Virus genome (UHGV): UHGV-0132790
Direction: 5' to 3' (one strand)
Length of the DNA stretch: 21,724 bases
Origin: a virus
Shown: piece by piece, positions 1,170 to 21,724 of the stretch
Position numbering within the stretch: the first letter of the stretch is position 1
Layout of the letters: each line of letters begins with the position of its first letter
The notes under the pieces: model-generated
What the model was told of the DNA's origin: nothing
What the model saw: the letters and a program-made list of their open reading frames with translations, nothing else
Databases searched by the model: none
Program-made: the position numbers and the translations under genes

Positions 1170-3238
1170 GATTTATCACCTCCGAAATTTTCAAGCCTGT
1201 TGGCAATCATGATGGCGATATCAGGGATTGCTGGCGCTGTGGCTATACATGCGGGGTTGGCGCACAAACCATAGACGGCGGCAATCACGAGCTGTCTTTT
1301 CCAGTCGAGAGTTACTGGCTCAGAATTGGCGTCATCGCCGGACGTATCACTGCCTGGCTCGTTCTGAACAACGGTTTCGCCCTCCTGAGCGGTATCAACA
1401 GAGTTTTCCTGAATGATCTTCTCCTCAGTTTGTGCTGAGTCTTCTCCATCAGCGGCGTCATTTTCTCCAAAAGTTTCTGTGTAAGTGCTATCGCCCATTA
1501 CCGCACTACAGTCAGGGCAGTTACCCCCGCCAGTCTGACCACAGACGCGGCAGTTTTTTTCCAGCTCCGGTTGCGCTACTGGGGCTGGCTGTTGCTCTTC
1601 TGGCCCGTTTTGTTGCGTATCCGGGCTGTTTTGTCCCGCTTCTGGGGCAATTTGTTCCACTTTGGACTGATTCTGGTCCTCAGTGTCGCGAGCCTGGATC
1701 CCCTTAATCCACTTCGGGTCGGTTGGGGCGCTGATGCCTTCAACGAACTCCCCACGAGAGGCAGCCAGCAATTTGTCTGCATCGACAGGATTTTTGGGCG
1801 AAATGTTTTTCCTGGCTTCATGGAGTTCTGCTCTCAGTTCCTGGTATTTCGTTTCTACAGATGAGACATTTTCCAGTGATTGCGTGTCCGCATTATGTTT
1901 AACTGGAATTTCTTCCACTGATTCAGGCGCTGCCTGTTCATTAGACATTGCGTCCGATGTTTGCTGCTTTTCTTCATCGTCATGTATCTCTTCTGCTGTT
2001 CCGCGCTGCGGCATTGGGGCTGATGAGCGACCGCAGGCGATTTCCACGATTTCCGGATCCGGGTTAGAGTGATCGGTTTCGGTCAACACTTTGTTGAGAT
2101 ATTCAGTCACGCGCGCCGGGATAGCCTCAATGCCGATTGGTGCTTCTTTCACTGAAGCCACCACAATGGCGCGGGAATAATCCAGCCCACCGGGCATGGC
2201 GATGAATTTGTCACGGAAAACAGAAAAGGGCGGCTTATTCTCTGACACGATTTCTTCAACGCGTTTTGCGTGTGCTGGGTGCAGGTTATAAATATCCACA
2301 TCCATTGAACGGGCCAGAACGCCAGTGGCAATGTCTCGCGCCAGTGATGCCTGATTGTGGGTAAAGCCTTCGCCACGATCGGTAAGATTTCCGCCGCCAG
2401 CGTTAGCACCGGAAGGCGTACGAGTGATGCCTGTAACATAATTTCCTTTCTGCCATTCTTTTGCCAGCAATCCCTGATCCACATAGTCTGTTTTCATCCA
2501 GGTGGAGATGAACTTGTCGAATTCAGCCGGGCTGATGCGATGATTTGCAGAGTGGGGGAATGCTTTCCCTACAGATTCAGCCAGGCGACTAAGGTGATAG
2601 TTCGTCAGTTTATCCAGTTCATGATGCGCGGCGCGCACAGCAGTAAGCAGGCTCTGAAGGTAACTGTCCTCTGTGTCCATCTCCATACGGATCACGTTAT
2701 TGCGTTGTTCTGGTGTGGCATGATGCCGGTATTTTCCATCTTCATCTTTGCTGAATAAGAAGAGGTGAAGGAAGCGATGAGTAAGGCTCAGAGTGGCGAC
2801 GGGAATTTCACACTCAGAACAGTCATCGTCGCTGTCCGGGGATTCGCTTTTCTCCACATCATCCGGAATAGTTCCGTCCAGGTTATCGTTGTCATCGCCA
2901 GCAGTTGTGGCATCTTCACCGTTGATGTTGTCATCGAAGGGGATAGCCATCATGGTGATGCCATCGTTACCGCCTTTTTCATAGCGGTTGCAGAATTCAG
3001 TATCAAACACGCCTTCCGGTGGAAGGTCATTCACGACGGGGAAATTTACGCGAACGGGTTTTTTGAAATCATCCTCGTCGTAGCCTGCATCGTCCATGGC
3101 TGCAATGCAGCGGGAAACTGCGACAGAAAGTTTTCTGGCCTCGGTCCAGAAAAAACCGCCTTTGATGCCAAGGCGTTTTCTGACTTTATCGTTTTTTGCT
3201 TCGCAGTGTAGTGCAAAAGTCTGTTTATCAGCGCTCAT
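1166..3238 (-). CDS. Large (690 aa) acidic hypothetical protein with Cys-rich cluster; function unknown, candidate host-takeover or anti-defence factor
   Basis: Long uninterrupted ORF with ATG at 3238 and AGAGGT upstream. The stop overlaps the gam start. Contains D/E-rich tracts ([25 protein letters not shown]) and a [16 protein letters not shown] motif. No family recognised from memory. Confidence 0.6.
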
Positions 3239-4034: not shown

Positions 4035-4210
4035 CATAATTATCTCCATTTTCACAAATGAACTTTGTTGATGCGGTGCCTGGTGCCTCCAGGTGACGTT
4101 AACCAGTTAACAACTAACGCCGGGTCAGGGGACGATGACTTTCCGTGACATCCTGTCGGTTTAACTGTTCCGCGTGCGCATAGCCGCATTCACCGCATCA
4201 CAAAATTCAC

Positions 4211-4254
4211 TTTAAAAAGGGCGGACATCAGCAATCGGCAAACCGATGTCCGCC
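4211..4254 (-). terminator. Intrinsic terminator inside the early-left operon (tL-like)
   Basis: Perfect 10-bp stem GGCGGACATC / GATGTCCGCC (4219-4228 / 4245-4254) with a 16-nt loop. On the minus strand it is followed by CTTTTTAAAG. Confidence 0.5.
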
Positions 4255-14376: not shown

Positions 14377-14713
14377 GCTTGTTTCCTGTTGCGTTACGCG
14401 AATCATTATAGCGACTGTTGTGTAATGCGCAACGGTTGTTTGACAAAAATAGGTATCCGGGATTATATTCACCGCACGCCAGCAAAATCTGGCGTCGGGA
14501 TTGGCGTCCTGGATAGAGACCGCGACAGATACACGCCGCGAGCGTGTTTTTTATTGTCGTATGCACGCGCACATCTGAATTATGGTGGGCTGTGTGGGGG
14601 CGGAGAGATCCGCGCCGGTCGGTTTCCCGGTTACGCCAACCCTGCACAGTTCACCACCAGACGATTGGCGTCGTCGGTGGTGAGTTATTAAGAAACCACT
14701 CGAGGGCGTCATT

Positions 14714-15406
14714 ATGACAACTCAAATCTCTGTTGAAACTCTCTCCCCGATCACCCATAACCAGATTCCTGTTATTACCACCGAACTTTTGGCGCAGTTG
14801 TACGGTGCTGAAGTTAAGAACATTCAAAATAACTACGCCAGAAATGCTGAGCGCTTTATTGAAGGAAAGCATTTTTTCAAAGTGGCTGGCGATGCCCTGA
14901 AAAATTTGCGGGTAGCTTTAAACTACTCACAAAATTTGCAACCATCTTTAAGAGGGTTACAAATTTCCCCGAAAGCCCGCTCCCTCATCCTCTGGACAGA
15001 ACGAGGCGCAGCCCGTCACGCCAAAATGCTAGAAACCGATCAGGCGTGGGAAGTGTTCGAAAAACTGGAAGACTGCTATTTCAGCCAGGGAAAAACAGCA
15101 CCAACCGAACAGCAGCCGCAGATTCAGCCACAATTCACAGCCGAGGAAATCATCCTCCTTTGCTACATGCAACTCTGGATGGAAAAAGCCCAGGACCTTA
15201 GCAAGCAGCTGTACCCCATAATGAAAGAGCTGAACTCCTCATACACGAACAAGCTGTATGACATTGCGTTTGAGACTATCTACATGGTGACGAAGAACAG
15301 AGACGCGCTACTAAGGGAGGTAACACGTCTCGACATGTCAAGTTCCGTTATCCAGCGGGCCATGCCAATGCTGAAAAGCCTGCGGGCAAGACAATTTGAA
15401 TTCTGA
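14714..15406 (+). CDS. ORF6N-domain phage protein (Roi or antirepressor-like DNA-binding protein)
   Basis: N-terminal VITTELLAQLYGAEVKNIQNNYARNAERFIEGKHFFKV resembles the ORF6N domain consensus. 230 aa. Confidence 0.6.
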   Translation: MTTQISVETLSPITHNQIPVITTELLAQLYGAEVKNIQNNYARNAERFIEGKHFFKVAGDALKNLRVALNYSQNLQPSLRGLQISPKARSLILWTERGAARHAKMLETDQAWEVFEKLEDCYFSQGKTAPTEQQPQIQPQFTAEEIILLCYMQLWMEKAQDLSKQLYPIMKELNSSYTNKLYDIAFETIYMVTKNRDALLREVTRLDMSSSVIQRAMPMLKSLRARQFEF

Positions 15407-16373: not shown

Positions 16374-16732
16374 ATGAATATGAGTTTGTGCTTCCCTGGC
16401 CGCCGACGGTGAATACCTACTGGCGAAGACGGGGAAGCCAGTACTACATCAGCGATAAAGGCCAGAAATACCGAAAAGACGTACAGCAAATCATCCGGCA
16501 ACTCAGATTAGACATTTTCACTAAATCACGACTTCGCATCACAATTATTGCTGAACCACCAGATTCCCGCCGTCGCGACCTCGATAACATCCTGAAAGGT
16601 TTACTCGACTCTCTTATCCACGCCGGATTTGCGGAAGACGACGTGCAATTCGATGACATTCGCGTAATTCGCGGCGTGAAAGTGCCTGGCGGTAGAGTGG
16701 GGATAAAAATCACCGAACTGGAGAACATATGA
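16370..16732 (+). CDS. rusA: RusA Holliday-junction resolvase
   Basis: 120-aa protein with LPWPP...RRRDLDN...G...DD core matching RusA. ATGA overlap with the upstream gene. Confidence 0.9.
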   Translation: MNEYEFVLPWPPTVNTYWRRRGSQYYISDKGQKYRKDVQQIIRQLRLDIFTKSRLRITIIAEPPDSRRRDLDNILKGLLDSLIHAGFAEDDVQFDDIRVIRGVKVPGGRVGIKITELENI

Positions 16733-16929
16733 ACGCCACAATTCAAACAATACCGGAATTGCTTATCCAGGCACGAGGCAATATGACTGAAGTTTCACGA
16801 AAACTGAACTGTAATCGTGCTACGGTCAGAAAATATGTCGGTGATAAAGAAGGCAAACGGCACGCCGTCGTCAACGGTGTCCTTATGGTTCACCGTGGAT
16901 GGGATAAGGGGAAAGCTACTGATGCGTGA
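16729..16929 (+). CDS. ninH: NinH-like small DNA-binding protein
   Basis: 66-aa ...TIPELLIQARGNMTEVSRKLNCNRATVRKYVGDKEGKRHAVVNGVLMVHRGW matches lambda NinH (TIPDMLVEAYGNQTEVARRLKCSRGTVRKYVDDKDGKMHAIVNDVLMVHRGW). Confidence 0.8.
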   Translation: MNATIQTIPELLIQARGNMTEVSRKLNCNRATVRKYVGDKEGKRHAVVNGVLMVHRGWDKGKATDA

Positions 16930-17164
16930 TATTCAGCAGGTGCCTGAACGCATGGCTTTATTCAGGTCGTCTGGAAAAGCGCATGAGCAGCGTAATAGCG
17001 GAGTTCATGGCGAAGAGTATATGAACAGATTATTTGAATGCTATATGAGACTGAAGCACGGAGATCGCTATGACCTGACACGTGATGCTGACGGTTTCTA
17101 CTGCCGTGAAGTTGTGAAACGAATGTTTGAAGTGTGGTGTCATTGTAAAGGATGGGGGCTGTGA
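16922..17164 (+). CDS. Hypothetical protein (80 aa)
   Basis: ATG at 16922 overlaps the ninH stop. Its stop overlaps the start of the next gene (TGATG). Confidence 0.4.
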   Translation: MRDIQQVPERMALFRSSGKAHEQRNSGVHGEEYMNRLFECYMRLKHGDRYDLTRDADGFYCREVVKRMFEVWCHCKGWGL

Positions 17165-17778
17165 TGCGGCTAACCCCAGTATTCGGCATGGTTAACTTTA
17201 TTAATGATGCTCATTTCCGCCGCATATGGAGGCATCCGAAGAAAATCATTAACTCTCGTCAGAAAGCATGGGTTCACTACATGCTACAGGTATGGGGAAA
17301 TGTTAACGCTGGTGATGATTCTCCTTGTGGTGCAATTAACGTTATTGGGCGACTGATGATTCGCAGTCAGTGGAGCGATGACAAAGCTAAGCAGATTGAG
17401 TCTGTTGTCATGCGTCTGTATGAAGAAGACGGACTACGTGGAGATGAACTCCATCAGAAAGCCCGAGAACTGGTCATCCCTCAGTCATCGGCAGGTAATA
17501 TCATTGCTCTCGCCAAAGAATCCGATGATGCTGCTTTCGTTGAACGTGTGATGGTTGAGACCTTTCATCGTGAAAGCCCTGTCCGTGATGTAGCTATTAG
17601 GCGATATTGCAATCGCGACAGCACGCAAGATATCGCCAGGATGATTTCTCAGATAACAGGAGTTGATATTCAGTATTGCCGGAGGCGGGTCGTGTGGTGC
17701 GAGAGGGTCCTTGATTCAGAAATGTTTTATGCAATGAAGCGAGAATTGGAGAAAGAACTTCTAGTGATTGCTGGATGA
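17164..17778 (+). CDS. Putative late antiterminator (Q-like), assigned by position only
   Basis: 204-aa ORF, last gene of the nin cluster, followed by a promoter/terminator unit. The order ninB-ninE-ybcO-rusA-small ORF-Q mirrors DLP12 (ybcN-ninE-ybcO-rusA-ylcG-quuD). Contains CRRRVVWC. Not lambda-Q-like in sequence. Confidence 0.45.
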   Translation: MRLTPVFGMVNFINDAHFRRIWRHPKKIINSRQKAWVHYMLQVWGNVNAGDDSPCGAINVIGRLMIRSQWSDDKAKQIESVVMRLYEEDGLRGDELHQKARELVIPQSSAGNIIALAKESDDAAFVERVMVETFHRESPVRDVAIRRYCNRDSTQDIARMISQITGVDIQYCRRRVVWCERVLDSEMFYAMKRELEKELLVIAG

Positions 17779-17802
17779 TGCAAAATATTTTTTGTAAATG
17801 CG

Positions 17803-17970
17803 TTGCTTTCGAGAAATGAAAGTAGTATGTTTTGTGTATGCTCGGAGCAAAAGCGCACTGAGAAGCGAAAGAGAAATCCTGATTTACCTCGGTCGTCGAT
17901 AATATTTAGGATCGGCATACTGGCTAGATTAGGTAAAGGCCTCGGCAGAAATGTCGGGGCTTTTTGTTTG
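17803..17970 (+). promoter_or_regulatory. Candidate pR'/tR'-like unit: promoter plus intrinsic terminator, giving a short leader RNA of about 130 nt
   Basis: TTGCTT (17803-17808), 17-nt spacer, TATGTT (17826-17831). Terminator stem GCCTCGGCA-GAAA-TGTCGGGGC (17939-17960) followed by TTTTTGTTTG. Confidence 0.4.
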
Positions 17971-18042
17971 CACAACAGGTAAGAGCATTGAACCCGCAGA
18001 CCTCGTGGAATTGGTGAAAGGTGTGCGCAGTGCTCTTATCGT

Positions 18043-18169
18043 TGTGGTGAAGCTCAATGGCGAGCTAGCAGACAGGCGACTGTGAAAATACTAGTCATGT
18101 AGCGGATCGCCGCGCGTATTGTAATCGGCAGCGCACCGATGGGAGCTGGTTCGATTCCGGCCGCCACAA
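18043..18169 (+). other. tRNA-like remnant (T-arm and acceptor-like pairing, no canonical cloverleaf found)
   Basis: GCTGG-TTCGATT-CCGGC T-arm motif at 18145-18161. CGCCACA (18162-18168) can pair with TGTGGTG (18043-18049), but the 126-nt span is too long and I could not fold a D arm or anticodon arm. No encoded CCA. Confidence 0.25.
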
Positions 18170-18311
18170 TCCAAACTGAGCCGTAGCCTCTGGGTGTCCT
18201 GAATTCATCAGTGATAGTTACGCTGCGGCCTTCTACATACGATTTTTGTGAAAAGCGGGTGGCAAGAGGCTGCGAAATTTTTAAATACCTCACAATTCCA
18301 CAGCTTGATGA

Positions 18312-18510
18312 TTGTCTGGCTGCCGGAGAATTTGTTAAAAATTACATCGCGTGGTGAATCCCCCTCAGCGGCGGGGCATCTGGCAAAGTGTATGATCCAG
18401 CGAACATGCAAATTCAGTAGCCAGGCTGAATTTACCGGGAGGCACCTGGCACCATGCGACAGACAGAAATTAGGCTATACTTCAGCCCCTCTCCGGAGGG
18501 GCTTTTCTGT
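18312..18510 (+). ncRNA. Candidate small RNA or late-leader unit A (promoter to terminator)
   Basis: TTGTCT (18312-18317), 17 nt, TGtTAAAAA extended -10 (18333-18341). Perfect terminator AGCCCCTC-TCCG-GAGGGGCT (18484-18503) followed by TTTCTGT. No convincing ORF. Confidence 0.4.
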
Positions 18511-18687
18511 GCAGGATGTGTCACAGTTTCCTGAATTCTGAGTACTGTCCTGTTACTCAGGGTGCTATATTTTCTGACGTGATGAAAGTCTGCCGGAAGG
18601 CGGAACGTATCGGAAATGACCCAGTAGAGAAAACGTTGACTCAGATACCGATGCTGAGTTACCGGGAAACCGGCATCACATGACCGC

Positions 18688-18720
18688 TATCCTTCCAGGC
18701 TCGCTCCGGCGGGCCTTTTT
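18688..18720 (+). terminator. Possible intrinsic terminator (imperfect stem)
   Basis: AGGCTCGCTCCGGCGGGCC followed by TTTTT. Confidence 0.3.
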
Positions 18721-18780
18721 ACTGCAGAAAACAGTTTTCCCGTAAAATGCCACGTTACTCACAATTCAGGCTGGCGATTA

Positions 18781-18993
18781 TTGTCTGGCCAGCGGGAAGT
18801 TTGTTAAAAAAATATGGCATGGTGAATCCCCTGTGCGGAGGGGCATATCAGCGACAGGTGTTTGGTCACACCCCTTATCCTTTCTGGTGCGGGTTCAGGT
18901 GCTGATACTGAACTCACCGGGAGGCACCCGGCACCATGCATGAACGGTACATAGCGCTACTCTCCAGCCCCTCTCCGGAGGGGCTTTCTTGTT
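18781..18993 (+). ncRNA. Candidate small RNA or late-leader unit B (diverged paralogue of unit A)
   Basis: Same architecture as unit A: TTGTCT (18781-18786), TGtTAAAAA (18802-18810), identical terminator hairpin AGCCCCTCTCCGGAGGGGCT (18966-18985) followed by TTCTTGTT. Shared internal blocks GGTGAATCCCC and CACCGGGAGGCACC.GGCACCATGC. Confidence 0.4.
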
Positions 18994-19227
18994 GGATAAA
19001 AAAAAGCCCGCGCCGGGAAGCGCGGGTGGCAAGGAATAAACAACAAAACGTGAAGTGATCAATTTTCAGCTGGCGAATAATACCCGACAGTAATCACTCT
19101 GTGCAACTGTATGGTCTTTTTCGTATTGCGGGCTGTAGTCATCCTCCTGTTTCTGAACCCTTGTCCATGACTGACGTCAGCCCGCACCTTATCTTGATTG
19201 CATACACTATCCCTGCCGGGAGGAATA

Positions 19228-21201
19228 ATGGCATTTAAACACTATGACGTGGTCAGGGCATCATCGCCGTCAGACCTCGCAGGAAAACTGGCGCAAAAAC
19301 TGAAGGAAGGCTGGCAACCCTATGGTAGTCCGATTATCTCAAGCGCGGGTTATGGTGCTGAATTTATCCAGGCTATAGTCGCTGAAGGGGATATGACCTC
19401 TCCGGTAGTTTCACCGGGGGGAGATGGTACCCGGACTGTTGTTGTTGAACCAGAATATTACTTTGTCATTGCGCTGGCCGGACAGTCAAACGGCATGGCG
19501 TATGGTGAAGGCCTGCCGCTGCCGGAGACATATGACCGTCCGGACCCGCGTATTAAACAGCTGGCGCGTCGCAGTACGGTGACACCGGGTGGTGCGGCCT
19601 GTGCATATAACGACATCATTCCGGCGGACCACTGCCTGCATGATGTGCAGGATTTGAGCCGTTTTTCTCATCCGAAAGCCAGCGCAGAGCAGTATGGGTG
19701 TGTCGGACAGGGATTGCATATTGCCAAAAAGCTGTTGCCCTTTATGCCGGAAAATGCGGGTATTTTGTTAGTGCCGTGCTGTCGTGGTGGCTCTGCGTTT
19801 ACAGCCGGTGCTGACGGAACGTTCAGTGAAAGTTCAGGAGCGTCGGATAAATCTGAACGATGGGGCGTTGATAAGCCGTTGTATAAAGACCTGCTGACAC
19901 GCACTCAGGCCGCGCTGAAGGCAAACCCCAAAAACATACTGCTTTGTGTTGTCTGGATGCAGGGCGAGTTTGATTTAAAACAGGGAGCGTACGCCAGTCA
20001 GCCCGCCATGTTTGATGCCATGGTGGAAAAATACCGTTCTGACCTGGCGGGAGTATCCGGTCAGTGCGCTGGTGCTTCTCCTTCTCTGGTGCCCTGGATT
20101 TGTGGTGACACGACGTACTACTGGAAGGAGACGTATTCAGCGCAATACGATGCCGTCTATGGCGCATACAAAACCAAAGCCGGTAAAAATATCTTCTTTG
20201 TGCCGTTTATGATGGATGACAATGGTCAGAAAGTCGGGACCAATGAACCGTCAGAAGACCCGGATATTCCGGCTATCGGGTATTATGGTTCCGGTGGACG
20301 AACGGATGCGAAGAGCTGGACAACATCCGATCGTAAAACCCACTTTGGTTCATGGGCGCGTCGCGGAATTATTTCCGACCGTCTGGCAACAGCCATTCTT
20401 CTGCATGTGGGCAGAGTGGCAGATTTTGTTTCCGGGAAAGTGACAAAAGCCGCGGTTTCTTCAGGCGGAGGCGTATCGCAACCAGTACAGGAGAGTGGCG
20501 ATACTCAGCCTGAAGCCGTTGTCCCGACAAAGATACAGTCAGTGCTGGCTTATGATGTGAATGCGGAAAATGCCGCTCTGGCTTCGCAGGGCTGGACGCT
20601 GACAGATGTCAAAAACACGCTGGTCAGTGACAGTGGTTCAGGTAAAAAAGCCCTTCGTCTTGAAAAACCAGAAAATGGTCTTGCACAGAAAAAGACCTGG
20701 AAAGTATCGCACGCAATTGATGCCGGTAAGGGGAAGGAGCTGTTCGATAACGGCGGTGAAATCACGCTGCGCTTTAAAATCCCCGATGATGTATCTCTCA
20801 ATGCTTCTGCAAATCAATATTCTGCGGGTATTTACTGGCGCGGTAGTGGATGGCCGGGAGCGGAATCAGAGGAGGGTTATATTGCGGCCTTCTATCTGCA
20901 GACTGATAAAACAAACATCAATGTGATGTATCATGCAAACACCACATCACAGCGGCTTGGTAGTTATGGTCCGTTCGATCACGACTGGCACACGCTGACT
21001 TTCCGCTTCCCGGGTGGTGGCTCGCTGAACGTCACGCCGGTGCTTGATAATGCAGCAGGAAAACCGTTTACGCTGACCAGATGGACGAATGCAGCCTTTG
21101 AGGCCAACGCGCTGGCAATTACGGATATTACCGGAAATGCGGCAACTTACCCTGTGCTGATTGAAAGTCTTACTGTTGGTGTGAATGCCGTAGCAGCATA
21201 A
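19228..21201 (+). CDS. nanS-p: NanS-p-like sialate O-acetylesterase (SGNH/SASA hydrolase domain plus C-terminal domain), as found downstream of stx in Stx phages
   Basis: 658-aa protein from the ATG at 19228 (MAFKHYDVV...) with GGGAGG upstream. The GQSN SGNH-hydrolase motif in FVIALAGQSNGMAYGEG and the overall size and architecture fit the prophage NanS-p family. Confidence 0.8.
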   Translation: MAFKHYDVVRASSPSDLAGKLAQKLKEGWQPYGSPIISSAGYGAEFIQAIVAEGDMTSPVVSPGGDGTRTVVVEPEYYFVIALAGQSNGMAYGEGLPLPETYDRPDPRIKQLARRSTVTPGGAACAYNDIIPADHCLHDVQDLSRFSHPKASAEQYGCVGQGLHIAKKLLPFMPENAGILLVPCCRGGSAFTAGADGTFSESSGASDKSERWGVDKPLYKDLLTRTQAALKANPKNILLCVVWMQGEFDLKQGAYASQPAMFDAMVEKYRSDLAGVSGQCAGASPSLVPWICGDTTYYWKETYSAQYDAVYGAYKTKAGKNIFFVPFMMDDNGQKVGTNEPSEDPDIPAIGYYGSGGRTDAKSWTTSDRKTHFGSWARRGIISDRLATAILLHVGRVADFVSGKVTKAAVSSGGGVSQPVQESGDTQPEAVVPTKIQSVLAYDVNAENAALASQGWTLTDVKNTLVSDSGSGKKALRLEKPENGLAQKKTWKVSHAIDAGKGKELFDNGGEITLRFKIPDDVSLNASANQYSAGIYWRGSGWPGAESEEGYIAAFYLQTDKTNINVMYHANTTSQRLGSYGPFDHDWHTLTFRFPGGGSLNVTPVLDNAAGKPFTLTRWTNAAFEANALAITDITGNAATYPVLIESLTVGVNAVAA

Positions 21202-21342
21202 CAGACGAAAAAAAACCGCCAGCAACAGGAATGGAGACTGGCGGAGGTAATCCCAATGGAGAATCTAACGAAAGGATGCTTTCGACATCAATCATTTCTA
21301 AATGAAAACAATTCTCATTGTCAACAGTAACGGTAATAAACC

Positions 21343-21537
21343 ATGACATTCATCAACCAGTTAATGCTGTACTTCTGTACGGTGGTCTGTGTGTTGTATC
21401 TGCTTTCAGGTGGATACAGGGCAGTACGCGACTTCTGGCGCAGACAGATTGACAAAAGGGCCGCTGAGAAAATCAGCGCCACTCAGTCAGCCGGAGCAAA
21501 AACAGAAGTCCCACTCATTCCGGAACAACCTTCTTAA
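21343..21537 (+). CDS. Small hypothetical protein (64 aa) with hydrophobic N-terminal segment
   Basis: ORF with a predicted TM-like stretch LMLYFCTVVCVLYLLSGG. Weak SD. Confidence 0.3.
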   Translation: MTFINQLMLYFCTVVCVLYLLSGGYRAVRDFWRRQIDKRAAEKISATQSAGAKTEVPLIPEQPS

Positions 21538-21562
21538 TAACCCCTTTCAACGAGAAAATCTC

Positions 21563-21724
21563 ATGACAGATATAAAACAACTGGTCACTGCTGAGGCAGT
21601 GAAGGAAGTCATTCGCTCTGAAGAAGTCAGAAGCGTCCTGAAACAAAAACTCCGCCAGAATCTGGAAGAGCGTCTTGATGCAGAAGTGGATTCAATTCTG
21701 GATGAATTGCTTGGTGCACAGCCG
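21563..21724 (+). CDS. Hypothetical protein, 5' part only (runs off the right edge)
   Basis: ATG at 21563 with GAGAAAA upstream. Open frame MTDIKQLVTAEAVKEVIRSEEVRSVLKQKLRQNLEERLDAEVDSILDELLGAQP continues to the window end. Confidence 0.35.
   Translation, partial: MTDIKQLVTAEAVKEVIRSEEVRSVLKQKLRQNLEERLDAEVDSILDELLGAQP

Follow-up and report, generated by a model that had tools for sequence, protein, structure and literature searches.

A probable late promoter module and tandem STnc100 small RNA genes behind a putative Q21-fold antiterminator gene in a lambdoid prophage

The late region of virus genome UHGV-0132790 raises the question of what lies between its putative Q gene and a downstream nanS-p type esterase gene, where repeated promoter-to-terminator units could be either duplicated pR'-qut-tR' late leaders or prophage-encoded small regulatory RNAs. 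A first-pass annotation of this 21,724-nucleotide stretch – referred to here as the window – described three such units and offered both interpretations for all of them. Phage PhiR5_2 (PV340546.1) is 99.7% identical to the window over positions 17100-19300, and roughly 12% of complete E. coli genomes contain the block, labelled 'hypothetical protein' or not at all. Here, we conclude that the region 3' of the antiterminator gene is probably a phage late promoter and terminator, followed by tandem STnc100 copies. The finding is real but mostly known, because STnc100 is a prophage small RNA that has already been catalogued; the unexpected part, which we advance tentatively, is that STnc100 RNAs and a much wider phage RNA family may have a tRNA-shaped scaffold in common, of which we found no description.

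The Q-like gene (17152-17778, plus strand; its homologues begin at ATG 17164) is annotated as hypothetical at NCBI, and phmmer and profile searches found no Q signature for its product in Pfam, NCBIfam, or PDB sequences, the only sequence-level match being PHROG 753. A fold search with a predicted model (pLDDT 74.9, a moderate confidence) matched Q21 as it appears in RNA polymerase complexes, at 13% identity, and with a model of this confidence the product can be called a Q21-fold antiterminator. The lambda, 21, and 82 Q families have no sequence similarity to it in Pfam or PDB, and only its fold matches Q21.

Unit 1 begins directly behind this gene with a predicted late promoter and candidate Q-loading (qut) site at 17803-17870 (plus strand), comprising a -35 hexamer TTGCTT (17803-17808) and a -10 hexamer TATGTT (17826-17831), the latter varying only as TAnnnT among 56 distinct relatives. 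The spacer between them carries GAAATGAAAGTAG. A -10-like element, TATGCT (17837-17842), lies 10 nt past the start of the -10 hexamer and around the predicted transcription start at about 17838, and is invariant in the relatives; TATGCTCGGAGCAAAAGCG in the initial block is nearly so. In 72 of 80 viral contigs the stop codon of the Q homologue is immediately followed by the same block, and in 67 of those 72 an intrinsic terminator occupies the equivalent place, with differing stem sequences and two classes of leader length. In the window this terminator, tR', spans 17935-17969 (plus strand; hairpin 17935-17964 with a U-tract to 17969), and although it was not listed by our terminator scan, it is supported by separate folding (-18.9 kcal/mol, z -4.85). 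Because unit 1 lies directly behind the Q-fold gene, and its promoter, initial block, and terminator are conserved with that gene as a module, we conclude from the comparative evidence that it is probably a late leader of the pR'-qut-tR' type, to which Q presumably binds. Of the two interpretations, the late-leader one is thus the one that fits unit 1.

In its organization unit 1 resembles lambda 6S RNA, phage 21 Q/pR', and StxS of the Stx2 phage Sp5, with a predicted sigma70 promoter directly behind the Q gene, a sequence like a -10 element where the transcript would begin, a terminator about 130 nt further on, and the late genes beyond. It differs from these lambdoid modules in that its conserved DNA block is specific to this Q family. 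Unit 1 would act as the constitutive sigma70 promoter of the phage late genes, and its -35/-10 spacer plus the ~30 bases at the head of the transcript would form the loading site for the Q21-fold antiterminator. Without Q, transcription would end at 17969 to give a leader RNA of about 130 nt; with Q, RNA polymerase would become terminator-resistant, passing tR' and three small RNA terminators to reach nanS-p and the lysis genes. It is established for StxS (PMC7547250) that a constitutive pR' gives rise to a short, terminated RNA in the lysogenic state, and a similar short transcript is a predicted by-product of unit 1.

Units 2 and 3 are of another kind. Unit 2 (18312-18512, plus strand) matches the STnc100 family (RF02076; gathering score 47 bits) with 139.9 bits and unit 3 (18781-18996, plus strand) with 129.8 bits, in both cases from model position 1 to 206. 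As proposed, they are paralogous (70% identity, z 16 relative to shuffled sequences) and have an identical terminator stem, AGCCCCTCTCCGGAGGGGCT, at 18484-18503 and 18966-18985 (plus strand), each with a T-run behind it; the similarity extends well past this hairpin, as all 206 positions of the STnc100 model are matched by both. Unit 2 has a -35 element TTGTCT (18312-18317), an A/T-rich -10 region (18335-18342), a predicted 5' end at G18349, a tRNA-shaped core (18350-18456), a single-stranded linker (18457-18483), and the terminator followed by a U-tract. The corresponding parts of unit 3 are TTGTCT at 18781-18786, an A/T-rich -10 region at 18804-18813, a predicted 5' end at G18817, a core at 18818-18938, a linker at 18939-18965, and the terminator with its U-tract. 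The mapped 5' end of the related RNA PasD2 aligns to G18349 and G18817, and the predicted fold of both units has a multibranch core closed by a stem, then a free linker and the terminator. By these matches units 2 and 3 are members of the STnc100 family and not duplicated late leaders, and a named family can be assigned to them after all.

The count of three promoter-to-terminator units is borne out by the terminators, hexamers, and paralogy, but a fourth unit at 18548-18723 (plus strand) had been overlooked, as had a tRNA-shaped element at 18043-18168 and the terminator of a convergent small RNA on the minus strand (19026-19007). The fourth unit, copy B, is a decayed STnc100 copy scoring 30 bits (E 2.8e-4), below the gathering score, and is 58% identical to unit 2 (z 6.4) and 55% identical to unit 3 (z 5.6). 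It has an extended -10 element TGcTATATT (18563-18571), a predicted start at about 18578, a core at 18578-18680, and a terminator at 18697-18716 with a U-tract, which was recovered in the scan and has a fold z of -3.95; the copy may be dead. Across 16500-20500 there are 17 terminator-like sites, relative to 3.7 ± 2.0 in shuffled sequences. The promoters are less clear-cut: sigma70-like hexamers are present at all three original sites and have comparative support, but a simple sigma70 consensus scan detected none of the plus-strand promoters, and the STnc100 units have atypical -10 regions.

The STnc100 units sit in a lambdoid late region, with the Q-like gene upstream and nanS-p downstream, a context also seen in Sakai Sp4 and an Stx2a phage. 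Unit 3 aligns lengthwise with the Sp4 locus, in which the Hfq-CRAC peak is EcOnc05; both the EcOnc05 and EcOnc27 peaks fall in STnc100 copies, of Sp4 and of the Stx2 phage Sp5 respectively, and northern bands have been seen. In enterohemorrhagic E. coli (EHEC) strain EDL933 there are 11 transcribed STnc100 copies, one of which (STnc100_4) was confirmed by northern blot, and the effects reported for STnc100 are those of overexpressing sRNA103/EcOnc27. The description of units 2 and 3 as prophage small regulatory RNAs is thus right, because they are STnc100 members whose EHEC homologues are Hfq-bound and visible on northern blots. The EHEC copies in Sp4 and the Stx2a phage occupy the same moron slot upstream of nanS-p and have the same terminator stem and promoter region as units 2 and 3, but the window has three tandem copies (two intact and one decayed) where those phages have a single copy, no toxin gene precedes them, and the single-stranded linker and central domain differ. 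The homologues are about 222 and 235/247 nt on northern blots, larger than the 160-175 nt predicted from a PasD-type start, so transcription may in fact start further upstream, or longer transcripts may be processed to give these RNAs; inspection by eye of the window and the homologue alignment revealed no conserved candidate for an upstream promoter that would account for the longer sizes.

PasD1 and PasD2 of EPEC E2348/69 (Pearl Mizrahi 2021; Zhu, Shabalina, Storz 2026 preprint) occupy the same slot, between Q and either an esterase or a holin gene, and have in common with units 2 and 3 the promoter, the 5' end GCAUGGUGAAUCC, the first hairpin, and the block CUGAACUYAxCGGGAGGC. PasD is Hfq-stabilised and has many RIL-seq partners. 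Its 3' module differs, with a seed CCUUGUGAG and a terminator GGCUGCGCA..GCGCAGCC that are absent from units 2 and 3, and it does not have the P4 hairpin. We also considered whether units 2 and 3 are themselves PasD, but only the 5' two thirds align and they contain neither the seed nor the terminator GGCUGCGCAuuGCGCAGCC that, together with BLAST-level identity to the E2348/69 genes, characterize it; conversely, the PasD loci have no Rfam STnc100 match at the gathering threshold. A common origin of PasD and STnc100 has already been proposed (Zhu, Shabalina, Storz 2026 preprint).

We therefore regard the stretch as the late-regulatory and 'moron' slot of a lambdoid prophage, probably housing two kinds of unit: a late promoter and leader (unit 1), and autonomous STnc100 small RNA genes (units 2, B, and 3) inserted into the late slot, each with its own promoter. 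Each promoter appears to be placed such that the RNA would start at the base of an 8-bp closing stem, giving a transcript with a tRNA-shaped four-way core, an unstructured linker of 25-30 nt that differs among the copies, and, at the 3' end, the combination of intrinsic terminator and U-tail to which Hfq usually binds. In a lysogen, these RNAs would be made independently of Q, and they most likely act in trans through Hfq-dependent base pairing of their variable single-stranded parts.

The minus strand carries the 3' part of a convergent small RNA of the EcOnc08/EcOnc21 type at 18999-19112, with its terminator at 19026-19007 and a U-tract to 18999, which aligns to Sakai Sp4 and to an Stx2a phage. 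The probe sequence for EcOnc08/21/42 corresponds to Sp4 and differs from positions 19078-19112 of the window at 5 of 35 positions. The Sakai homologue is about 271 nt on northern blots, from which a start near 19270 is predicted here, which would make the RNA antisense to the start codon of nanS-p at 19229. This arrangement resembles the convergent pairs described by Tree et al. 2014 (Sp3, 4, 5, 9, 10, 11, 15, and 17), in which small RNA genes are located in the moron slot downstream of pR' and the pairs lie between that slot and a conserved esterase open reading frame, as they do here, with the plus-strand STnc100-type RNA meeting the terminator of the minus-strand RNA within 20 nt. An identity with AsxR or AgvB was considered and rejected, as the published sequences are absent from the window and the terminator is different: their conserved 3' region of about 42 nt, GUAUCUCAUGC..GCCCGAACCCAYUCGGGC, is not found in the minus-strand RNA, which ends with CCCGCGCUUCCCGGCGCGGG, and neither has an Rfam match in the window even at E values up to 5. 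The esterase gene itself (19229-21201, plus strand; DUF1737, SASA, and DUF6645 domains) is the first late gene downstream, and is annotated in matching genomes as a SASA family carbohydrate esterase. A search for PasA at 21201-21724 revealed a minus-strand terminator in the PasA/PasC position, with only a weak alignment.

The tRNA-shaped core of the STnc100 units has counterparts elsewhere in the window. The element at 18043-18168 (plus strand) has canonical-looking D and T arms, with a 74-nt insert replacing the anticodon arm, and has flanks in common with the scaffold element of a related locus (L019). A genuine tRNA gene was considered and rejected here, as the cmscan tRNA score for 18043-18169 is 26.5 bits, below the gathering score of 29, and ARAGORN returned nothing credible with or without introns allowed. 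A scaffold model (R1) matches it over its full length (14.7 bits, E 0.018), and also matches unit 2 (18.8 bits, E 0.001) and unit 3 (22.0 bits, E 1e-4); the match to copy B is not significant (5.7 bits). The scaffold alignment A8 carries an anchor bias. The best R1 match in the window (28.1 bits, E 1.7e-6) is at 4072-4197 on the minus strand, in an intergenic gap of the early-left operon, with a 5' half like the wider family and a 3' half like STnc100. This element was found with a loose structure descriptor – too permissive by itself, with 14 matches relative to 2.3 in shuffled windows – and was then confirmed by R1.

It is possible, if still somewhat doubtful, that the cores of STnc100 and PasD together with the elements at 18043-18168 and 4072-4197 (minus strand) belong to one large undescribed phage RNA family with a tRNA-shaped scaffold, a natural counterpart of the engineered tRNA scaffold. 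Such a scaffold would consist of an acceptor-like stem of 7-8 bp, a 2-nt junction, and D-like and T-like hairpins, with an elbow made of either a 6-bp kissing pair (GCUGAU/AUCAGC) or canonical D and T loops, and with a hypervariable cargo (12-160 nt) where a tRNA has its anticodon arm. It would confer a tRNA-like, nuclease-resistant shape, with ends that RNase P may define, and would serve to present exchangeable cargo such as base-pairing seeds or decoys of host RNAs; STnc100 would then be this scaffold with its own promoter and an Hfq-type terminator. One class of cargo resembles a helix of small-subunit rRNA (a single cmscan match, E 2.8e-4), a likeness that is also based on comparison with the 16S sequence, and BLAST of this cargo against E. 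coli genomes gave 18 near-identical prophage copies and 524 weaker matches; another class resembles a tRNA. Engineered tRNA scaffolds for recombinant RNA, herpesvirus tRNA-miRNA chimeras, and bacterial YrlA are comparable tRNA-type systems. The scaffold elements resemble tRNAs and their mimics in the acceptor-like stem, junction, and D-like hairpin, in a T-like hairpin that abuts the acceptor 3' strand, in an elbow-like loop-loop contact, and in the replacement of the anticodon arm by cargo. They differ from tRNAs in scoring below the Rfam tRNA threshold and being negative by ARAGORN, in having no anticodon arm or CCA context, and in that the elbow of most members is a Watson-Crick kissing pair rather than a D-loop/T-loop contact. 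The scaffold matches no Rfam family, and our incomplete coverage of the literature on constant scaffold sequences and tRNA-like phage scaffolds yielded nothing relevant, which is weak evidence of novelty.

Several other explanations of these units deserve consideration. That all three are duplicated pR'-qut-tR' leaders, each a target of Q, is suggested by their layout, in which each promoter-like site precedes a strong terminator and all lie in the late region beyond Q, but is very improbable: the block conserved together with this Q gene is missing from units 2 and 3, which are only weakly and unconvincingly similar to unit 1 (~53% identity, z ~3), and in P22-like relatives a single module of the unit 1 type serves the lysis genes. 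Moreover, STnc100-type units are also located behind unrelated Q genes, 75 nt behind stx2B in Stx2 phages, and behind the tRNA genes ileZ-argN-argO in Sakai Sp4, and so are not tied to a Q allele. The STnc100 units could instead function mainly in cis, as stacked insulating terminators that keep leaky transcription in the lysogen from reaching nanS-p and the lysis genes, and/or as tRNA-like processing signals in the Q-antiterminated late transcript, the short RNAs being by-products. The presence of four plus-strand terminators in the 1.1 kb ahead of the late genes is consistent with this, as are the promoter-less scaffold elements embedded in operons – co-oriented with late transcription at Q-linked loci in 27 of 27 cases – and the real tRNA genes in the same slot of Stx phages. 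We nonetheless consider a mainly cis role unlikely, since each unit retains a promoter of its own that is in register with the closing stem, the homologues are abundant, discrete, Hfq-bound RNAs, the PasD relatives have numerous RIL-seq partners, and a plain terminator has no need of a conserved structured core of 110 nt.

The units and scaffold elements are also multicopy, occur in very different phage types, and have variable flanks, as would MITE-like mobile DNA with terminal inverted repeats (TGTGGTG...CACCACA) and only incidental RNA structure; UPF_BP1 has an apparently empty site behind the usual flank CAGTGCTCTTTCC, and the complementary loops would fit an inverted repeat just as well. 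This is highly doubtful, as compensatory double changes in the P2 and P4 hairpins and the loop-loop pairing (7 pairs relative to 1.2 ± 0.9 in shuffles) are not required by a terminal inverted repeat, the orientation bias is strong, no target-site duplication is evident in the listed flanks, and the STnc100 members are expressed. Nor does it seem credible that the units encode small proteins. Four open reading frames of 52-97 aa overlap them (17803-17982, 18248-18541, 18516-18683, and 18747-18905), some are annotated as hypothetical proteins in phage records, and some EDL933 STnc100 copies have ribosome footprints with coverage values above 1. However, none has a Pfam match, the unit 1 frame is interrupted by a stop codon in close relatives (in the L019 sequence), the frames extend across promoters and terminators, and conservation tracks RNA pairing rather than codons. 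A late leader followed by autonomous STnc100 genes remains our preferred explanation.

For annotation, the block labelled 'hypothetical protein' or left blank can be relabelled as a late promoter and terminator and a set of STnc100 small RNA genes. The Q21-fold gene and its defined candidate loading site constitute a putative fourth Q/qut pair for established antitermination assays. STnc100 is among the most multiplied prophage small RNAs of pathogenic E. coli, and in a machine-learning study SNPs in the Stx2-linked copy ranked with the best predictors of HUS. If the scaffold is indeed common to many phages of Klebsiella, Salmonella, Cronobacter, Yersinia, Erwinia, and Aeromonas, its variable parts would be the obvious place for function, and it could be tested for RNase P processing, stability, and binding partners.

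The stretch is a lambdoid prophage, and prophages in 18 complete E. coli genomes as well as Escherichia phage PhiR5_2 share 99.7-99.9% identity with positions 17100-19300. The three units proposed in the first-pass annotation to run from promoter to terminator – unit 1 (17803-17970), unit 2 (18312-18510), and unit 3 (18781-18993), all on the plus strand – are present, bordered upstream by a 208-aa ORF at the Q position (17152-17778, +) and downstream by a nanS-p type esterase gene (19229-21201, +) with DUF1737, SASA, and DUF6645 domains. Their terminators were confirmed by hairpin plus T-run or by folding; the region has 17 terminator-like sites versus 3.7 ± 2.0 in shuffled sequences, and a folding energy of -18.9 kcal/mol (z -4.85) was obtained for the unit 1 terminator (17935-17969). 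The terminator stem reported as identical in units 2 and 3 is AGCCCCTCTCCGGAGGGGCT in both hairpins (18484-18503 and 18966-18985), each followed by a T-run. Units 2 and 3 are indeed paralogous, with 70% identity over about 200 nt (z 16 versus shuffles), and unit 1 has no convincing similarity to them (about 53% identity, z about 3). As noted earlier, the units contain no convincing ORF, and the overlapping ORFs have no Pfam match. The sigma70-like promoters stand on comparison with relatives, from which their support must come because a consensus promoter scan returns none of the three plus-strand sites.

Units 2 and 3 had been regarded as not assignable to a named small RNA, and this does not hold: they are STnc100 genes, already known as such, matching the full RF02076 model at 18319-18512 (+, 139.9 bits) and 18788-18996 (+, 129.8 bits) relative to a gathering score of 47 bits. 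In Stx2 phages, STnc100 is found 75 nt past stx2B, with nanS-p further downstream; in the Sakai prophage Sp4, whose locus aligns throughout with unit 3 and the next 200 nt, it is located downstream of ileZ-argN-argO. Hfq-crosslinking peaks at Sp4 correspond to EcOnc05 (+) and EcOnc08/21 (-), whose northern bands measure about 222 and 271 nt; EcOnc27 of Sp5 was mapped at about 235/247 nt and is destabilised without Hfq, and 'convergent sRNA pairs' were reported in the moron slot, which lies downstream of pR' (Tree et al. 2014). The EcOnc27 and STnc100 annotations overlap, and EDL933 has 11 transcribed STnc100 copies, one with northern confirmation. According to a 2026 preprint, STnc100 is akin to the EPEC sRNAs PasD1 and PasD2, which are located between Q and the esterase. 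The PasD loci of E2348/69 share the promoter, 5′ end, first hairpin, and central block with units 2 and 3, but have their own 3′ seed and terminator. The PasD2 5′ end, taken from RNA-seq coverage, aligns to G18349 and G18817 and thus predicts RNAs of about 160 and 174 nt, although these 5′ ends are uncertain, given that the bands on EHEC northern blots exceed the predicted sizes by 40-70 nt. The predicted folds show an 8-bp closing stem with a multibranch core, then an unpaired linker of 25-30 nt whose sequence is different in the two units, and last the terminator. By analogy with their homologues, the STnc100 RNAs most likely regulate targets in trans in an Hfq-dependent manner. At ≥80% coverage, 639 of 5426 complete E. 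coli genomes contain the whole array (18300-19000), which follows a different Q gene in phages such as vB_EcoS-640R1.

Two further transcription units were missed in the first pass. For one (18548-18723, +), transcription is predicted to start at ~18578, behind an extended -10 (TGcTATATT), and the terminator is at 18697-18716; its core has the layout of the neighbouring units, to which it is 55-58% identical (units 2 and 3), and it matches the STnc100 model below threshold (30 bits, E 2.8e-4). We read it as a decayed third STnc100 copy (copy B, with units 2 and 3 as copies A and C). The other is a convergent sRNA of the EcOnc08/EcOnc21 type (18999-~19270, -), to which the terminator at 19026-19007 is assigned; AsxR/AgvB was rejected as its identity. 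With a length of ~271 nt, that of the Sakai RNA, it would be antisense to the ribosome-binding site and start codon (19229) of nanS-p. A minus-strand intrinsic terminator (CCGCCAGUCUCCAUUCCUGUUGCUGGCGG plus U8) is also found directly past nanS-p (21208-~21290, -), in the position and orientation of PasA/PasC (EcOnc51/52) in E2348/69; it aligns weakly with PasA, and an Esr41 match is weak (19 bits).

In lambdoid phages such as lambda, 21, and 82, pR′-qut-tR′ consists of a promoter, a sigma-dependent pause element at the transcript start, and a terminator. The proposal that the units are either late leaders or sRNAs is partly supported, and divides between them: sRNAs for units 2 and 3, and a late leader for unit 1. 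A late-leader reading of units 2 and 3 is rejected, as they lack the conserved block of unit 1 and occur behind unrelated Q, tRNA, and toxin genes. The DNA just past the Q-like stop codon is conserved along with that gene, and the unit 1 block lies ahead of holin and endolysin genes in the Salmonella P22-like phage UPF_BP1, Salmonella phage 29485, and Cronobacter phage ENT47670. Among 80 IMG/VR loci coding for a protein 82-100% identical to the Q-like protein, 72 contain the core GTGTATGCTCGGAGCAAAAGCG, with 56 distinct sequence versions among them; in these, TTGC is the -35, variation of the -10 stays within TAnnnT (TACATT, TATGTT, TATTTT, TAAATT), and a second, -10-like hexamer (TATGCT) 10 nt beyond it is invariant. 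By strict criteria, 67 of these 72 loci have an intrinsic terminator, with stems that differ in sequence and retain pairing. Leaders come in two lengths, the distance from the core to the terminator end being about 60-79 nt or about 130 nt, and that of the window is of the long type. Unit 1 is a newly recognised example of a pR′-qut-tR′ late promoter module, at which Q would be expected to bind and promote read-through. StxS provides a precedent for the short terminated transcript expected in lysogens (PMC7547250).

The product of 17152-17778 is predicted from fold similarity to be a Q antiterminator. The family is annotated as 'hypothetical protein' throughout NCBI records from Escherichia, Salmonella, Klebsiella, Enterobacter, Cronobacter, Serratia, Yersinia, and Pantoea, with DUF1133 as one UniRef name, and its invariant residues include R23, R24, W40, W48, R140, R145, R177, R179, and W182.

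The segment directly past tR′ (17970-18042, +; GCACAACAGGTAAGAGCATTGA...) recurs post-terminator in the otherwise different viral loci L058, L068, and L089. It is followed by a tRNA-like element missed in the first pass (18043-18168, +), with a sub-threshold cmscan tRNA match (26.5 bits), canonical-looking D (GCUCAAUGGCGAGC) and T (GCUGGUUCGAUUCCGGC) arms, an acceptor-like stem, and a 74-nt insert replacing the anticodon arm. ARAGORN rejects it as a tRNA; the same slot holds real tRNA genes (ileZ-argN-argO or tRNA-Met) in related prophages. Within matching flanks, Q-linked loci carry a different element with constant 5′ (UGUGGUG-AA-UGCGCAGGCUGAUGCGC) and 3′ (GCCGGAGAUCAGCACCGGC-CACCACA) parts and unrelated inserts between. 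The motif CAGTGCTCTTwyCGT precedes this scaffold element in many loci, and is present without it in UPF_BP1. Two exact-word scans of IMG/VR found the scaffold in at least 120 contigs each, and BLAST in 145 phage records, among them lambdoid phages (mEp460, HK620, Stx2c phages), P1-like phages, PY54, siphoviruses and 160-kb myoviruses of Klebsiella, and phages of Aeromonas and Erwinia. Insert length varies between 12 and 160 nt, and dozens of unrelated insert classes occur. The element matches no Rfam family, and a literature search found no paper containing its constant sequences. One cargo class (AGCUAGAUGGUGAGGUAAUGGCUCACCAUGGCGACGA; L038 3679-3719, and also L079, L151, L161, L172, L241, and L244) resembles a small-subunit rRNA helix (one cmscan SSU match, E 2.8e-4), and BLAST of it against E. 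coli genomes gave 18 near-identical prophage copies and 524 weaker matches; the L199 cargo appears to be a near-complete tRNA; support for the cargo acting as a decoy is thin. The related viral contig L056 has a Sib antitoxin RNA (2949-3102, +; RF00113, 100.8 bits) in the late region between a Q-type leader and a scaffold element, suggesting that a type I toxin-antitoxin module is another moron-slot occupant.

In the scaffold, a 7-bp closing stem is followed by 2 nt, a 4-bp hairpin, the insert, and then a 5-bp hairpin abutting the 3′ strand of the closing stem. This is tRNA geometry; the hairpin loops are complementary (GCUGAU/AUCAGC), and minimum free energy folds are cloverleaves. In 100 distinct elements, gathered by exact anchors at one or other end with closing-stem pairing as a selection criterion, 97.7% of cells are paired versus at most 54% with partners slid. 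Seven pairs have changes on both sides versus 1.2 ± 0.9 in shuffles (0/500); three of the first hairpin's four pairs are among them, as are two loop-loop positions, the latter in a single sequence, Cronobacter phage ENT47670 (GUCGAU/AUCGAC).

The Rfam consensus structure of STnc100 has this same layout. A covariance model built from kissing-loop type elements only, without STnc100 sequences, was used in an unfiltered search of the window and five reference loci, and its best eight matches, each full length, are exactly the predicted elements: 4072-4197 (-, 28.1 bits, E 1.7e-6), 18818-18938 (22.0 bits, E 1e-4), 18350-18456 (18.8 bits, E 1e-3), and 18043-18168 (14.7 bits, E 0.018) in the window, and the STnc100 cores of L008 copy C (3044-3149, 25.8 bits), Sakai Sp4 (24.9 bits), the Stx2a phage (18.9 bits), and L008 copy A (2577-2683, 17.8 bits). 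The cores of PasD reach 10.3 bits (E 0.36), while no significant match was obtained for copy B; all E-values of this model are rough. The element at 4072-4197 (-) occupies a gap between genes of the early-left operon; a terminator-like hairpin of the minus strand (~4215-4250) comes just ahead of it, and an ORF with its start at 4036 follows. The element is a hybrid with a 5′ half like the wider family and an STnc100-like 3′ half (CCUGGAGGCACCAGG-CACCGCA), and similar hybrids are found elsewhere. All 27 model matches in Q-linked loci share the strand of the late transcript and fall between Q and the lysis genes; in other loci a crude ORF-based test of orientation scored 70 as co-oriented, 15 as opposed, and 28 as ambiguous.

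Elsewhere in the window, 14463-14661 (+) has above-threshold Rfam matches to isrK (74.7 bits), C4 antisense RNA (66.7 bits), and the a1/b1 target (47.1 bits); next comes an ORF of 230 aa (14714-15406) annotated as an antirepressor in PhiR5_2. This arrangement is a P1/P7-type C4-controlled antirepressor cassette within a lambdoid prophage.

In a lysogen, the stretch would yield four short RNAs – the pR′ leader plus at most three from the STnc100 units, each stopped at its own terminator – with the minus-strand RNA converging on unit 3. Upon induction, Q would load at unit 1 and take RNA polymerase past the four terminators, so that nanS-p and the lysis genes would be transcribed. The short RNAs and the read-through are proposed because of established lambdoid biology and the anatomy described here. 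The variable linkers and central domains would carry STnc100 specificity, and the tRNA-shaped core may give stability or a binding surface. The units as first noted are of modest interest; the scaffold family merits a separate look.
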